Below are positions 28,343-36,016 of a stretch of 64,000 bases of DNA, piece after piece. How positions within the stretch are numbered: position 1 is the stretch's first letter; each line of letters opens with the position of its first letter. Position numbers and translations under genes: made by a program. Origin of the DNA: Candidatus Latescibacterota bacterium (GTDB lineage Bacteria; Latescibacterota; UBA2968; UBA8231); contig OZ220089.1 of the NCBI GenBank assembly GCA_964291625.2, positions 96,001 to 160,000 on the forward strand. Direction: 5' to 3'. The notes beneath the pieces are model-generated. The model was not told the DNA's origin. It made no database searches and saw nothing but the letters and a program-made list of their open reading frames with translations.

Positions 28343-29548
28343 TCAGCCTCCGGCGGCGGGCCTGCGGCCGGCCACGATGGGCGGCAGATGGGTCACCGGA
28401 CAGCCCCGGGCTCCGCGCACGGAATAGCCCATGTCGCCGAGGACGCAGCCGATCTCCGACTCGAGGCGAAGCAGGTAGTCGCGCTCCTCGCCGCTCAGCA
28501 CGGTCCGCGGCGGACCGGCGTCGAAACCGCGCACGGCGACGCCGGTCCTGAATCCCTCGGGGAAGTTGACCCCCTGCAGCATGAGGTTGATCAGAGGCAG
28601 GAGGCGGTACTGAAGCTCCCTGGCCCGCTCCAGGTCTCCGGCGACGGCGCGGTCGTAGAGCTCGACGATGACCTCGGGGACGATGCCGGAGGTGGCGGTG
28701 GTGCCGCCGTTGGCCCCCATGACGATCGACGGCAGCAGGATCTCCTCACAGCCGTTGAGCACGACGTAGTCGGGCCGCTGCGGGCGCAGGCGGTGCATGG
28801 TGTTGAGGATGCGCGGCAGGTCGCGGCTGGAGTCCTTGGTGCCGAAGATGCGCTCGAAGGCGAGGAGCCGCTCCATCGTGTCGAGGGGCAGCTCCTGGGT
28901 GAACTGGGGGATGTTGTAGAGCAGGATGTCGAGGGGCGAGTGGCGGGCGATCTCGGCGAAGTACTCGTAGAGGCTGGTGTCGGAGATCCTGTAGTAGTAG
29001 GGCGGCACGAGGGAGATGGCGTCGGCGCCGAGGTCGGCGTAGTACCCGGCCATCTGCAGCACGTCGCGGATGTTGGCCTCGCTGGCTCCCGCGAGGATCG
29101 GCACCCGCCCCTGGTTGACCTCGGCGATGAGCCGCACCACGTCGCGCCGCTCGTCGCTGGAGAGGCGCACGAACTCGCCCGTGCTGCCGTTCGGGTAGAG
29201 ACCGTGGATGCCGGCCTCGATCAACCACGCGATGTAGCGCTCCATCTCGCCGTAGGAGATCCGCCCCTGGTCGTCGTAGATGACGATGTTGGCGGTGAAG
29301 ATGCCGCTGAAGCGGCGGCTGCGCTCGGTCCCGCCGGGAGACGCGGCCACGCTGGGGGGAGGGTCTTCCGGCCGGGGGCCCGGCCCGGCCGCGGGGCCTG
29401 GCACGACCTCGATCCCCCGGGCCCGCAGCAGGTCCCTGGCCGAGGGTGTGAGCTTCGAGCCCGGCGAGATCTCCACCTGTCCGTCGTCCTCCCCGAGGCG
29501 GCTCTCGAGCAGTTGGGCGGTGACTACGGGATCATCGATGCGGACCAT
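28343..29548 (-). CDS. BMC-associated DHDPS/NAL-family class I aldolase with extra N-terminal domain
   Basis: NGSTGEF, VPPYYY, ILLYNIPQF, GTKDSS (Schiff-base Lys); about 75-aa N-terminal extension with LTPSARDLLRARGI and a Pro-rich linker. Confidence 0.88.
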   Translation of the reverse strand: MVRIDDPVVTAQLLESRLGEDDGQVEISPGSKLTPSARDLLRARGIEVVPGPAAGPGPRPEDPPPSVAASPGGTERSRRFSGIFTANIVIYDDQGRISYGEMERYIAWLIEAGIHGLYPNGSTGEFVRLSSDERRDVVRLIAEVNQGRVPILAGASEANIRDVLQMAGYYADLGADAISLVPPYYYRISDTSLYEYFAEIARHSPLDILLYNIPQFTQELPLDTMERLLAFERIFGTKDSSRDLPRILNTMHRLRPQRPDYVVLNGCEEILLPSIVMGANGGTTATSGIVPEVIVELYDRAVAGDLERARELQYRLLPLINLMLQGVNFPEGFRTGVAVRGFDAGPPRTVLSGEERDYLLRLESEIGCVLGDMGYSVRGARGCPVTHLPPIVAGRRPAAGG

Positions 29549-29560
29549 GCCTGTGTGCGC

Positions 29561-30712
29561 CTAACCGTGGGGCAGGCGCATCTCCATCTCTTCATAGGGC
29601 AGGTGGATGGCGTGGGCGGCGACCAACTCCCCGTAGGGGCCGGCCGTGTGCCTCGCAACCTCGAGAGCCGTGTCGACGGCCCCCGTCTCTCCGCGGACGA
29701 CGCAGGCGGTCAGGAAGTAGCCAACCTTGTAACGGCCCTCGTAGGTCACGTCGGCGTGCTTGAGCATCTCGTCGAGGGCCTTGACGAGACCGGCGGTGGT
29801 GCGCGTCTCCACCAGACCCAGGGCGCGGCCTGCGAGGGTGCGCGCACCGGGAGACTCGCTCGCCCGGGCGAAGCAGGCCATCACTTGCGGATCCGGACCG
29901 CCGATCACCACCTGCCCCTCCAGCTCCGCCGTCTCACCGGCCCGGCGAGCGCCCTCGGCGACGGCGGCGCCGACCTCGTCCAGGGATCCGGAGGCAATCG
30001 CCGCCACGCGGCCACCGCTGCCGATCGTCAGCCGCGCCAGGTCGACACGCCCTCCCTTCACCATGCCGTCGACGGCGGCCACCGAGCCCGCGTATCCCGT
30101 GGCCTCGACGATCCCTAGAGCGGCCGCGGTGAGTGGGTCGCCCGGGGGAATGGAGGGCAGCAGGACGCCCACTTCGGCCTCCGGTTGGGGCAGCACCAGG
30201 GCGCCGTGGAACTCCCCCGCCCGCCGGGCCGCCCCTTCCCCGGCCCGCACGGCCGCCTCCACCGACCCCACCGAGCCGCTGACGGTGGCATGCACCAGGG
30301 CGCCGCCGATGGAGGCCCAGCCGTGGAGCTCGACGGCGCCGGCCTTGACCATGGCGTCGGCGCCGGCGGCCAGGGGGACCAGGCCCCGCGTCTCCAGGAG
30401 GCCGATGGCCTGGAGGCCGGCCCTGAACTCGAGATCGGCGCCGAGGTGCGGCATCGGCTCGAGGGCGCCGGAGTCGGCCCCCGGTACGAGGGCCGCCGTG
30501 ATCACCTCTCCGTGGGCGGCGGCCGCCTCCCGCCCCGCGTCGAGGGCGGTGCGCGCGTCGGCCGTGGAGCCTTCGACGATCACGGTCAACCAGCCGGAGC
30601 CGATGCCGTGGCGTCCCCCCAGGCGCACGGAGGCCGCCTTGTGCATGGAGTCGAGGGCCGCCGCCAGAGCCGTCATGCCCCTGACCTCCAGGATGCCGAG
30701 GGCGCGTTCCAT
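29561..30712 (-). CDS. BMC shell protein with four tandem BMC (Pfam00936-like) domains, 383 aa
   Basis: From ATG 30712: ALGILEVRG..DSMHKAA / AIGLLETRG..DAMVKAG / ALGIVEATG..DGMVKGG / ALGLVETRT..DEMLKHA, each followed by a G-x-V-x-x-V-x-x-A-like segment. Confidence 0.9.
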   Translation of the reverse strand: MERALGILEVRGMTALAAALDSMHKAASVRLGGRHGIGSGWLTVIVEGSTADARTALDAGREAAAAHGEVITAALVPGADSGALEPMPHLGADLEFRAGLQAIGLLETRGLVPLAAGADAMVKAGAVELHGWASIGGALVHATVSGSVGSVEAAVRAGEGAARRAGEFHGALVLPQPEAEVGVLLPSIPPGDPLTAAALGIVEATGYAGSVAAVDGMVKGGRVDLARLTIGSGGRVAAIASGSLDEVGAAVAEGARRAGETAELEGQVVIGGPDPQVMACFARASESPGARTLAGRALGLVETRTTAGLVKALDEMLKHADVTYEGRYKVGYFLTACVVRGETGAVDTALEVARHTAGPYGELVAAHAIHLPYEEMEMRLPHG

Positions 30713-31290
30713 CAGCCTGACCCGGCGGCCGGACGGAAGAGGAGGAAGGCCCGCAGCACCGACGGCTGGGGGCGCGGGATCACCGCCGCTGCCATGAACC
30801 ACTCGCTGCCGCCCAGCCTCTCCCGGCCGCGGCCGATGGCCTGTTCGACGGCGTCCACGGCCCCGGTGATCAGGCTGCAGACGACCCGGTCGTGCACGGT
30901 GAGGACGTTGGCCACGGCCACATCGGCGGCCTTCGCCATGGCGTCGTTCACCTCCACCTGGACGCCGTACCCCCGGGTCTCGATCAGGCCCAGGGCGCCG
31001 GCCTCGACCTCGCCCGCGGGAAGGGGGCAGCCGACGAAGCCGGAGCACTCGGGCTGTGGCTGATCGAGGCAGGCGCCGACGACGTGGCCGGTGACGGCGC
31101 CGGCCGCCGCCTCGCCTGCGCGCAGGGCGGTGCTGACATCACCGAGGGGGCCGCGCAGGAAGAGGGTGGTGAACCCGCCGATCGACTCCCATCCCATCAG
31201 CTCGACCCGCGCCGCCTTGCAGGCCGCGTCAGCGCCGACGACGATACCCGCGACTCCCTCGACCTCGATCATCCCCATGGCGTCGGACAC
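30712..31290 (-). CDS. BMC shell protein with two tandem BMC domains
   Basis: AMGMIEVEG..DAACKAA and ALGLIETRG..DAMAKAA..VIPRP; stop overlaps the next ATG (TGATG). Confidence 0.9.
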   Translation of the reverse strand: MSDAMGMIEVEGVAGIVVGADAACKAARVELMGWESIGGFTTLFLRGPLGDVSTALRAGEAAAGAVTGHVVGACLDQPQPECSGFVGCPLPAGEVEAGALGLIETRGYGVQVEVNDAMAKAADVAVANVLTVHDRVVCSLITGAVDAVEQAIGRGRERLGGSEWFMAAAVIPRPQPSVLRAFLLFRPAAGSG

Positions 31291-35173: not shown

Positions 35174-35460
35174 CTCTCTCCTGCCTGCTCAGCAGCGGTA
35201 TCGATGTGAACCCGGTCGACTCGCCCGATGATGGCCGCGTCGGCCGGAACCCCGTCCTCGAAGGCGTTGCATGCCTCCCGGGAAACCTCCACGACGACCA
35301 GGTCTCCCTCCGCCATGGCCTGCCAGCCGACGGCCACCTCCGGATCGCCCACGCCCCGCAACTCGCCGTCCACGTCCTGCACCAGGTGCAGGCTCTTGTC
35401 CTGGTACGGCTCGACGGCCCGCGACAGAACCACCTGTCCGAGAACGCGGGAGAGCTTCAC
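35170..35460 (-). CDS. BMC vertex pentamer (EutN/CcmL family, divergent)
   Basis: MKLSRVLGQVVLS..EGDLVVV..PADAAIIGRVD. Confidence 0.85.
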   Translation of the reverse strand: MKLSRVLGQVVLSRAVEPYQDKSLHLVQDVDGELRGVGDPEVAVGWQAMAEGDLVVVEVSREACNAFEDGVPADAAIIGRVDRVHIDTAAEQAGER

Positions 35461-35717
35461 GGCGCCCCTTCGGCGCCGTCGACGATACCCACGACGACGC
35501 TGCGCACGGGAGGGAACTCCAGGCCCGTCACCTCGCTGCCGGCGGCGCCCGAGTCGGCCACCAGGACGCGGCAGCCGGGACCGGCGCCCACGGCGTCGAC
35601 CGCCAGTTGCAGGGCGGCGGCGCCGTCGCCGTCGTCGACGATCAGGATCCGGCGGCGGTCGAGGGCCGGATGGCGCTCACCGGCCACGACGTTGCCGATG
35701 ACCCGCGCCATCCTCAT
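35457..35717 (-). CDS. BMC vertex pentamer (EutN/CcmL family)
   Basis: 3' end of the 35457..37970 ORF: MRMARVIGNVVA..HPAL..AVDAVGAGPG.RVLV..PVRSVVVGIVD. Confidence 0.88.
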   Translation of the reverse strand: MRMARVIGNVVAGERHPALDRRRILIVDDGDGAAALQLAVDAVGAGPGCRVLVADSGAAGSEVTGLEFPPVRSVVVGIVDGAEGAP

Positions 35718-36016
35718 GCGGCAGCCTGGGCAAAGCGACGGCCGCCGGAGCTCACCGAGTCGACGATGCCCACCAGAACGGCATCCACGGGCAGGTCTCC
35801 CATACCCGGGCACTGACGGGCCGAGCTGCCTTGCACCAGGAGCACGACCTGGCCCTGGCCGGCGCCCACGGAGTCGACGCAGACCAGGTGCCTGCGCGTG
35901 GGAAGGGCCTCCTCGCCATCGACGGTGAGCAACTCCACGAGCAGCAGTCTCCGGCCCTCGAGAGTGGCGGCCTTGGCCGAGGCCACCGCCTGCCCCTTGA
36001 CCCGCGCCAGGACCAT
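35714..36016 (-). CDS. BMC vertex pentamer (EutN/CcmL family)
   Basis: MVLARVKGQAVASAK..CVDSVGAGQGQVVLLVQGSSAR..PVDAVLVGIVD. Confidence 0.93.
   Translation of the reverse strand: MVLARVKGQAVASAKAATLEGRRLLLVELLTVDGEEALPTRRHLVCVDSVGAGQGQVVLLVQGSSARQCPGMGDLPVDAVLVGIVDSVSSGGRRFAQAAA

Follow-up and report, generated by a model that had tools for sequence, protein, structure and literature searches.

A DHDPS-family aldolase linked to a four-domain shell protein in a metabolosome locus of Latescibacterota

Results

A DHDPS-family aldolase gene stands in a fixed module with two shell protein genes

We analyzed a stretch of 64,000 nucleotides from a Candidatus Latescibacterota bacterium (assembly GCA_964291625.2, contig OZ220089.1, positions 96,001 to 160,000; hereafter the window), which holds the main locus of an aldehyde-oxidizing metabolosome, a bacterial microcompartment (BMC) with the core features of that family. 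One gene of this locus encodes DHDPS1, a class I aldolase-type enzyme of the DHDPS/NAL family with 401 amino acids (28343-29548; PF00701, 201.6 bits). Beside it lie the genes of two shell proteins, the tandem two-domain T_b (30712-31290) and the four-domain BMC4 (29561-30712), and all three genes are on the minus strand. T_b, BMC4, and DHDPS1 are a fixed three-gene module. We propose that DHDPS1 is a shell-linked class I aldolase that would feed the acylating aldehyde dehydrogenase (AldDH) and the phosphotransacylase PduL of this organelle alongside a class II aldolase, and we put the probability of this reading at roughly 0.5.

Loci for comparison came from a scan of species-representative genomes, in which 75 loci were mapped by tblastn with the proteins of the window. 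The order T_b-BMC4-DHDPS1 was found in 67 of the 75. Three further loci have BMC4-DHDPS1 at a contig end, another three are cut at the aldolase gene, and two (L070 and L075) hold distant homologs that do not carry the N-terminal domain of DHDPS1. AldDH, PduL, and the aldolase stand in one locus, in nearly fixed order, in 49 cases. Sixteen loci, here called the satellite type, have T_b-BMC4-DHDPS1 alone with no AldDH or PduL gene within 10 kb, and five of these genomes were searched, each with its only AldDH elsewhere. The other companions of DHDPS1 at the window's locus (a Cys-rich protein, a DAO-family FAD oxidoreductase, and a second DHDPS-like protein, DHDPS2) were not found in any of these five genomes, so the minimal unit is T_b-BMC4-DHDPS1.

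Of 8000 proteins scored in a homolog search with DHDPS1, 2539 reached E<=0.001. The best 120 of these are 67-98% identical to the query over 92-100% of its length, N-terminal extension included, and the named sources among them are metagenome-assembled genomes (MAGs) labeled Gemmatimonadota or Latescibacterota. In a survey of the phylum, an ortholog (E<=1e-100) was present in 81 of 168 species genomes, 76 of these with the N-terminal domain, and the counts by family were 57/75, 16/22, 2/31, and 5/5. The family with five of five (f14) has a 51-53% identical homolog without that domain, which abuts a tandem BMC gene in all three f14 loci fetched and also in L070, the locus of an Opitutae MAG. 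The initial annotation of the window had tied its proposal of an aldolase-bearing metabolosome to synteny of the aldolase with shell genes in relatives, and such synteny is what the mapped loci, the f14 family, and the Opitutae genome display.

DHDPS1 is not the housekeeping DapA

DHDPS1 consists of a highly conserved stretch at residues 1-50, a variable Pro/Ala linker, a barrel at residues 80-356, and a tail with two invariant Cys. The motifs first reported for it are intact, namely NGSTGEF (120-126), YNIP (211-214), and GTKDSS (236-241). Residues K238, Y211, and G121-E125 are invariant in 13 sequences and align with the corresponding residues of DHDPS, and S122 and T123 are kept. These class I residues (K238, Y211, S122/T123) are shared with the sugar-acid aldolases, including YagE/YjhH, the archaeal KDG aldolase, and a proposed bifidobacterial deoxy-fuconate aldolase. 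Unlike YagE and the KDG aldolases, DHDPS1 adds the 50-residue N-terminal domain, the Pro/Ala linker, the Cys-containing tail, and the linkage to shell genes.

Several sources annotate the protein as dihydrodipicolinate synthase and it is a PF00701 member, as would be expected if it were the lysine-pathway DapA sitting by chance next to shell genes. We rejected this explanation and give it practically no chance. DHDPS1 scores 153.5 bits with the dapA model TIGR00674, below the cut-off of 206.15, and its F216 aligns with the Arg of YNVPSRT in M. jannaschii DHDPS (2yxg). We take this Arg to correspond to E. coli R138, the DapA residue that binds aspartate semialdehyde. The genome has 12 PF00701 matches, and one of them, at L076:1498-2535, passes the dapA model (227.7 bits), carries YIIPGRT, and is followed by a dapB-like open reading frame (ORF). 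Because this true dapA-dapB pair lies elsewhere, the aldolase is not the genome's only DapA, a possibility that the initial annotation had itself named against its proposal.

Within the family, DHDPS1 falls below the cut-off of each NCBIfam model compared (NanA, DapA, HpaI-like, KDG-aldolase, and KdgD). A profile of the DHDPS1 family searched against the PDB placed YagE and a KDG aldolase at ranks 2-4. Identity to any solved member is ~30-35%, an estimate read off the alignments.

BMC4 joins four shell domains in one chain

BMC4 (383 amino acids) contains four PF00936 stretches and T_b contains two. We corrected the start of BMC4 to the ATG at 30712, which overlaps the preceding stop as ATGA. 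Its four domains are 31-40% identical to one another, and the fusion is therefore old. T_a, another tandem two-domain shell protein of the locus, and each half of BMC4 align with PduT and other non-permuted tandem proteins, and T_b would be of the same PduT-type tandem BMC-T kind. By sequence, T_a matches PduA, a BMC-H tandem fusion, and PduT in the PDB, and in this search, which covered T_a and BMC4, the matches of both were non-permuted PduA/PduT-type chains. PduT has a pore Cys and an Fe-S cluster, and the pore-loop motifs that we read in BMC4 have no Cys.

A search for BMC4 homologs gave 163 proteins at E<=1e-10. The 120 listed are 320-402 amino acids long, and the few named among them come from Gemmatimonadota or Latescibacterota MAGs. 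The main text of the 2021 BMC catalogue recognizes five hexagonal building blocks with at most two domains each (PMC8217296), and BMC4, with four domains in one chain, has an architecture outside those five. A literature phrase search found no paper on four-domain shell proteins.

The N-terminal domain of DHDPS1 is shared with a Cys-rich protein

The gene next to T_b encodes a Cys-rich protein of 160 amino acids (31295-31777, minus strand) with no Pfam or NCBIfam family. It is laid out as an N-terminal 50-residue domain, a linker, a Cys cluster, and a C-terminal amphipathic helix. An alignment of 29 homologs shows invariant C96, C111, C114, C129, and C132, which include two CxxC pairs, and an invariant EEFGSG motif. 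By sequence comparison, its N-terminal domain is homologous to that of DHDPS1. BLASTP aligned the two domains at E=0.007, and a profile of the Cys-rich protein matched only the first 55-70 residues of DHDPS1 in five of five genomes, with E values from 9e-11 to 4e-9.

In an AlphaFold2 (AF2) model of the Cys-rich protein, the N-terminal domain is a beta-alpha-beta-alpha-beta element with a pLDDT of 94-97, the C-terminal helix has a pLDDT of ~88, and the Cys-rich core is below 50. The same order of elements opens the poorer AF2 model of DHDPS1. The isolated N-terminal domains and the Cys-rich core had no Pfam match even at E up to 10, and a fold search with the Cys-rich model reached a best Z score of 6.2, within noise, so that search named no fold relative. 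The C-terminal helix of the Cys-rich protein resembles the C-terminus of the class II aldolase described below. From these features we infer that the shared N-terminal domain serves in docking or assembly.

A class II aldolase is encoded beside a satellite shell gene

Two BMC-H genes lie beyond the main locus, at C2:608532 and C1:3586026. The one at C2:608532 belongs to a satellite trio (C2:606825-608847; L089:6823-8847) that comprises BMC-H, an LPG_synthase_TM-type membrane protein, and a class II aldolase (PF00596, 155.7 bits). This aldolase is the sole one of its class found in the genome by tblastn, and its last 30 residues form an encapsulation-peptide-like amphipathic helix. Here and below, we take such short amphipathic helices to be putative encapsulation peptides. 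The trio is kept at 69-97% identity in three relatives (G010, G006, and G007), and a fourth (G008) keeps the aldolase and the membrane gene. A conserved membrane protein gene flanked by genes for shell and cargo is an unusual arrangement.

With this satellite in the same genome, the organelle has at least two candidate aldehyde sources and one AldDH, which is likewise a sole copy in the genome. The initial annotation had stated that no known signature enzyme is present, which holds for the locus and does not hold for the genome. Its further claim that the DHDPS-family aldolase is the signature enzyme was not supported, as a class II aldolase with an encapsulation-peptide-like helix is encoded as well. 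In two satellite-type relatives, the main loci (L087 and L088) contain PduL, BMC-H, BMC-P, AldDH, BMC-P, BMC-P, class II aldolase, and acetate kinase. An acetate kinase homolog of the window's genome is at C1:3440303, outside the locus.

Genomic context suggests a possible sugar-acid substrate

A divergent FAH-family gene adjoins AldDH in 35 of the 75 loci, full-length in 33, and in loci of the L012 type it separates the BMC-P triplet from AldDH. Among NCBIfam models it matches 2,4-didehydro-3-deoxy-L-rhamnonate hydrolase best, and a rhaM-like gene lies beside it in 17 loci. The two enolase-superfamily (MR_MLE) genes of one satellite-type locus, L017, have as their best PDB relatives acid-sugar dehydratases or MR/MLE-family entries for which no function is stated (E=2e-87 and 6e-76). 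MR_MLE genes also occur near the DHDPS gene in two of the three f14 loci (L096 and L097) and in the Opitutae locus L070. A DHDPS-annotated gene of Bifidobacterium has been proposed, in passages of PMC5080750, to encode a deoxy-fuconate/rhamnonate aldolase giving lactaldehyde, and the main text of the catalogue links class II aldolase cores to fuculose- and rhamnulose-phosphate (PMC8217296). Because of the FAH, rhaM-like, and enolase-superfamily context, together with the class II aldolase cores and the bifidobacterial precedent, a 2-keto-3-deoxy sugar acid aldolase is favored, with lactaldehyde as the shared product of both aldolases. The 2-keto-3-deoxy acid guessed at in the initial annotation thus gained support of an indirect kind, from the FAH genes beside AldDH and from acid-sugar-dehydratase-like genes in three lineages.

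In the scheme that we propose, DHDPS1 would work as a class I aldolase through a Schiff base, with its 50-residue N-terminal domain keeping it at the shell or within it, and it would cleave a 2-keto-3-deoxy sugar acid to pyruvate and an aldehyde. The likeliest substrate would be a 6-deoxy-hexonate, such as 2-keto-3-deoxy-L-fuconate or -rhamnonate, which would yield L-lactaldehyde; we hold this specific deoxy-sugar acid only tentatively. AldDH would convert the aldehyde to an acyl-CoA and PduL would convert that to an acyl-phosphate. The class II aldolase would feed the same single AldDH from a phosphorylated branch. DHDPS1 would then plug in as a second source of aldehyde rather than act as sole signature enzyme.

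The gene order of L017 (11249-19392) is an observation in its own right. DHDPS1 is followed on the same strand by genes for a PHP-like phosphoesterase, a PhyH dioxygenase, a Zn-dependent dehydrogenase, and a DapF-like epimerase, after which come the two enolase-superfamily genes and a second PhyH. An upstream pathway may be encoded by this mixed set of genes. A Zn-dependent alcohol dehydrogenase was seen in the L017-type satellite context only. We had considered X315, downstream of DHDPS1 in L017, as a DHDPS2 homolog and rejected it, as it has no similarity to DHDPS2 and shows weak PHP-type phosphoesterase matches. In the window's own genome, other members of the DHDPS family are encoded at most a few kb from homologs of enolase-superfamily dehydratases at C1:3017958-3021055 and C1:4698020-4704593, which suggests that the organism has several ordinary non-phosphorylative sugar-acid routes.

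A bolder version of our proposal is that T_b-BMC4-DHDPS1 is a portable cassette that gives lactaldehyde-type metabolosomes a second substrate. A globular 50-residue docking domain, common to the enzyme and a metal-binding Cys-rich adaptor, would replace the short encapsulation peptide, and three BMC4 chains could supply twelve domains, i.e., two linked hexagonal tiles, as the dedicated entry port or anchor of the enzyme. We consider this version doubtful, though worth stating.

Evidence against the proposal and rival explanations

Several observations weigh against a shell-linked sugar-acid aldolase. DHDPS-family members in the PDB score almost alike (149 to 136 bits), and this ranking therefore assigned no subfamily. 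The AF2 model of DHDPS1, built from a 13-row alignment, is poor, with a mean pLDDT of 54. Much of the synteny is among related genomes and so is not independent evidence, and the encapsulation of DHDPS1 is itself something we infer. The sugar-acid context has its own weak points. FAH (225 versus 500) and the rhaM-like protein (42.7 versus 99.6) score far under their equivalog cut-offs, and the adjacency of MR_MLE genes is limited to three lineages, one of which is a single closely related clade. Among the flanking genes inspected, no sugar-acid gene stands next to the window's own locus. The window does have a bona fide L-rhamnose mutarotase family gene (58390-58764, minus strand; PF05336, 100.8 bits), 22 kb from the BMC locus; this nearest rhaM lies between genes for hexapeptide-repeat and metallo-beta-lactamase-fold proteins, with no recognizable sugar cluster. 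Finally, the DAO-family protein and DHDPS2 have no role in the proposed scheme, and the always-adjacent DAO is glycine-oxidase-like, which fits an amino-acid route better than a sugar route.

The DAO-family FAD oxidoreductase (27224-28324, minus strand; PF01266, 215.8 bits) accordingly figures in two other schemes. In a D-amino-acid or hydroxyproline-type route, it would oxidize a D-imino or D-amino acid in the cytosol, and alpha-ketoglutarate semialdehyde would be released in the shell and trapped by AldDH as a CoA ester. Passages of PMC4113996 describe the triad of DAAO, DHDPS, and AldDH as a hallmark of bacterial hydroxyproline catabolism, and the same three superfamilies are adjacent at our locus. 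The DAO gene lies 3' of DHDPS1 in 55 of the 75 loci, and in the five translated (L019, L020, L033, L037, and L063) the stop of DHDPS1 directly adjoins the DAO start. DAO does not appear to be thiamin ThiO, and the L017 context contains a DapF-like epimerase and two PhyH dioxygenases. However, the genome, at 95% completeness, yielded no match to a 4-hydroxyproline epimerase (PF05544). In contrast to the 4-hydroxyproline pathway, AldDH is of the acylating EutE/PduP kind, is paired with PduL, and scores 48 bits with the alpha-ketoglutarate semialdehyde dehydrogenase model, against a cut-off of 770, and shell genes surround all of these enzyme genes. In the PDB, DAO comes nearest to glycine oxidases rather than to hydroxyproline dehydrogenases. 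Furthermore, the five satellite-type genomes that were searched keep T_b-BMC4-DHDPS1, and since DAO was not found in any of them (nor were DHDPS2 and the Cys-rich protein), DHDPS1 needs no DAO there. We regard this route as unlikely. The match of DAO to glycine oxidases (E=6e-38) would also suit a glyoxylate route, in which DAO and a 4-hydroxy-2-oxoglutarate-type aldolase, either DHDPS1 or DHDPS2, would interconvert glycine, glyoxylate, pyruvate, and 4-hydroxy-2-oxoglutarate while the shell confines glyoxylate. Human 4-hydroxy-2-oxoglutarate aldolase is indeed among the DHDPS-family PDB matches (105-111 bits), but YagE, the KDG aldolase, and many DHDPS entries outrank it by far. The loci examined showed no glyoxylate-pathway gene, and we know of no precedent for an oxalyl-CoA/oxalyl-phosphate route through AldDH and PduL. 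We therefore consider a glyoxylate route very improbable.

DHDPS1 could instead be cytosolic and merely co-expressed, with the class II aldolase as sole signature enzyme and an N-terminal domain that serves regulation or oligomerization and is unrelated to the shell. The domain is globular, whereas AldDH, PduL, and the class II aldolase carry short amphipathic peptides; the fold search above gave it no clear structural relative; and the placement of DHDPS1 in the shell is presumptive. All three points would suit such an enzyme. Against this, DHDPS1 is linked to two shell genes in 67 of 75 loci, 16 of them apart from the enzymatic core, and in another phylum distant homologs keep a shell neighbor. 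Co-expression alone is hard to accept given this persistence. The same N-terminal domain also heads a protein that ends in an encapsulation-peptide-like helix. A purely cytosolic DHDPS1 is, in our judgment, quite unlikely.

Comparison with known metabolosomes

The enzymes of this system are closest to those of the PVM-like metabolosomes, and its genomic layout is closest to the FRAG types, likened here through the main text of the catalogue. PVM and PVM-like metabolosomes (Planctomycetes-Verrucomicrobia type; fucose/rhamnose, lactaldehyde) are described in the main text of PMC8217296 and in passages of PMC4207490. Our locus resembles them in its core of AldDH and PduL and in having several BMC-P genes. 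A further shared element is a class II aldolase (PF00596), a candidate aldehyde source, whose gene belongs to the satellite here and to the main locus in L087 and L088; these two satellite-type relatives, with class II aldolase and acetate kinase in the main locus, are PVM-like. Unlike PVM, the main locus of the window encodes DHDPS1 and the two shell proteins tied to it, besides the Cys-rich protein, DAO, and DHDPS2, and it has no acetate kinase, lactate-dehydrogenase-like gene, or DeoR regulator at the locus.

The FRAG types have fragmented loci and a BMC-P triplet, with Gemmatimonadetes and candidate phyla among their taxa, and most of their shell genes are remote from known enzymes (PMC8217296, main text). 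Here, the BMC-P triplet is at 35170-36016, and shell genes occur at three places in the genome and at more in relatives. Unlike FRAG, AldDH, PduL, and three further enzymes stand in one operon with shell genes. As for the HO type (Haliangium ochraceum), marked by double-stacking permuted BMC-T (T-dp) shell proteins, T_a and BMC4 gave sequence matches to non-permuted chains, and the HO BMC-H is one of many PDB matches; a relationship need not show up in such sequence matches.

No BMC type is named with a DHDPS-family enzyme in the main text of PMC8217296 or in the searchable literature, and passages of PMC8941161, a paper retrieved for Latescibacterota and microcompartment, contained nothing relevant. 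The loci are probably listed in the 2021 catalogue as a cryptic type, because genomes of these lineages may have existed when it was made. As far as our searches reach, the organelle class is known, while the DHDPS module, the N-terminal domain, the four-domain shell protein, and the two-aldolase reading are undescribed. In many metabolosome types an AldDH occurs without any evident enzyme to generate the aldehyde (PMC8217296, main text). This system, which about half of the phylum's species genomes carry, offers one such cryptic organelle two concrete candidate aldehyde sources. The enzyme-plus-shell cassette could show how an existing organelle gains new substrates. If the N-terminal domain is a docking module and BMC4 a new tile, both would be useful parts for engineered compartments and would widen the vocabulary of shells.

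Remaining genes of the main locus

The window has ~70% G+C and raw ORF lists are therefore noisy, so we worked from translated minus-strand frames scanned against Pfam and NCBIfam. All genes of the inventory first reported are present on the minus strand with their Pfam families above cut-off, the Cys-rich ORF being without a family, and the remnant is real as well. Both folds of a metabolosome shell, PF00936 and PF03319, occur, all above Pfam cut-offs, and the core enzymes, an acylating PF00171 AldDH and PduL, are both above NCBIfam cut-offs. Junctions within the locus are overlaps of 1-7 nucleotides or gaps of 2-18 nucleotides, with the exception of 92 nucleotides around the remnant. The operon was reported as shorter than it is: the genes named stand, and to them we add a LytB paralog upstream and DAO and DHDPS2 downstream.

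The LytB/IspH paralog is of the long form and is the probable first gene of the operon (36023-37291; PF02401, 208 bits; NF009911, 439.6 bits versus a cut-off of 440). Its ORF extends to 37348, with the likely ATG at 37291, and a promoter-like site, a consensus match only, lies upstream at 37327-37300. A gap of 6 nucleotides separates LytB from the first gene of the BMC-P triplet, P_a (35714-36016; PF03319, 85.7 bits), which is followed by P_b (35457-35711; 60.4 bits) and P_c (35170-35460; 46.2 bits). A second LytB at C1:2135632 scores higher than the BMC-linked copy (330 versus 208 bits). The block of LytB and P_a-P_b-P_c is intact in G007 and G008 (L102 and L103), though far from the main BMC locus there. 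This linkage suggests a functional tie of an Fe-S enzyme paralog to the organelle, or a shared promoter.

Next come T_a (34616-35173), which has two PF00936 stretches and is not circularly permuted, BMC-H (34336-34602; PF00936, 95.4 bits), and AldDH (32901-34325; PF00171; NF011927, 640 bits versus a cut-off of 403). As read from its translation, AldDH begins with an encapsulation-peptide-like amphipathic helix and a Gly/Ser linker. The fourth BMC-P (32580-32897; PF03319, 76.2 bits) precedes PduL (31870-32583; PF06130, 212.7 bits; NF011652, 215 bits versus a cut-off of 209), whose translated N-terminus has a helix extension and then a flexible linker. Between PduL and the Cys-rich gene lies a BMC-H gene remnant (31781-31873), a 30-codon ORF recognized from translation. 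It joins a BMC-H-like N-terminus (MRAFVMVETRG) to a BMC-H-like C-terminus (VPRSIDELEGASGF), the middle being deleted, and relatives (L005-L008 and others) have an intact T_a/BMC-H pair at its position. Among the genes of 26202-37348 there is no alcohol dehydrogenase, and the report that the main locus has no alcohol dehydrogenase, acyl kinase, or regulator was borne out at the locus.

At the other end, DHDPS1 and DAO had appeared to be fused in L019, L033, and L037; we rejected a fusion, as translation gives a stop followed at once by ATG. A thiamin ThiO role for DAO is also unlikely. DAO scores 185.8 bits with the ThiO model (cut-off 250.8), two ThiO-like paralogs are both below cut-off, and DAO is probably not ThiO because the genome has no convincing ThiG, the only match being partial at 25.7 bits. 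DHDPS2 (26202-27149, minus strand) is a second, divergent DHDPS-like protein of 315 amino acids (PF00701, 33.3 bits versus a cut-off of 22.1). It was recognized because only the C-terminal part of a long spurious ORF is conserved in relatives, and it retains a Lys aligned with the Schiff-base Lys. DHDPS2 lies 3' of DAO in 49 of the 55 DAO-bearing loci. Any roles of DAO, DHDPS2, the Cys-rich protein, and LytB in the organelle are putative.

Beyond these genes, iron-repressor and Feo genes flank the locus on one side and QueC on the other, and these outer genes look unrelated to the BMC locus. At 24072-25877, two divergent DtxR/IdeR-type iron-dependent repressors with FeoA domains adjoin split feoB genes. 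Many relatives have this arrangement next to the BMC locus too, probably through inherited synteny. The third BMC-H-type gene of the genome (C1:3586026-3586253; L090:8015-8494) encodes 159 amino acids with a C-terminal extension; a 125-amino-acid ORF follows it, with no BMC enzyme nearby. Elsewhere in the window, an ORF of 2052 codons on the minus strand (2462-8620) has a coding-like codon bias and a GC3 of 0.96.

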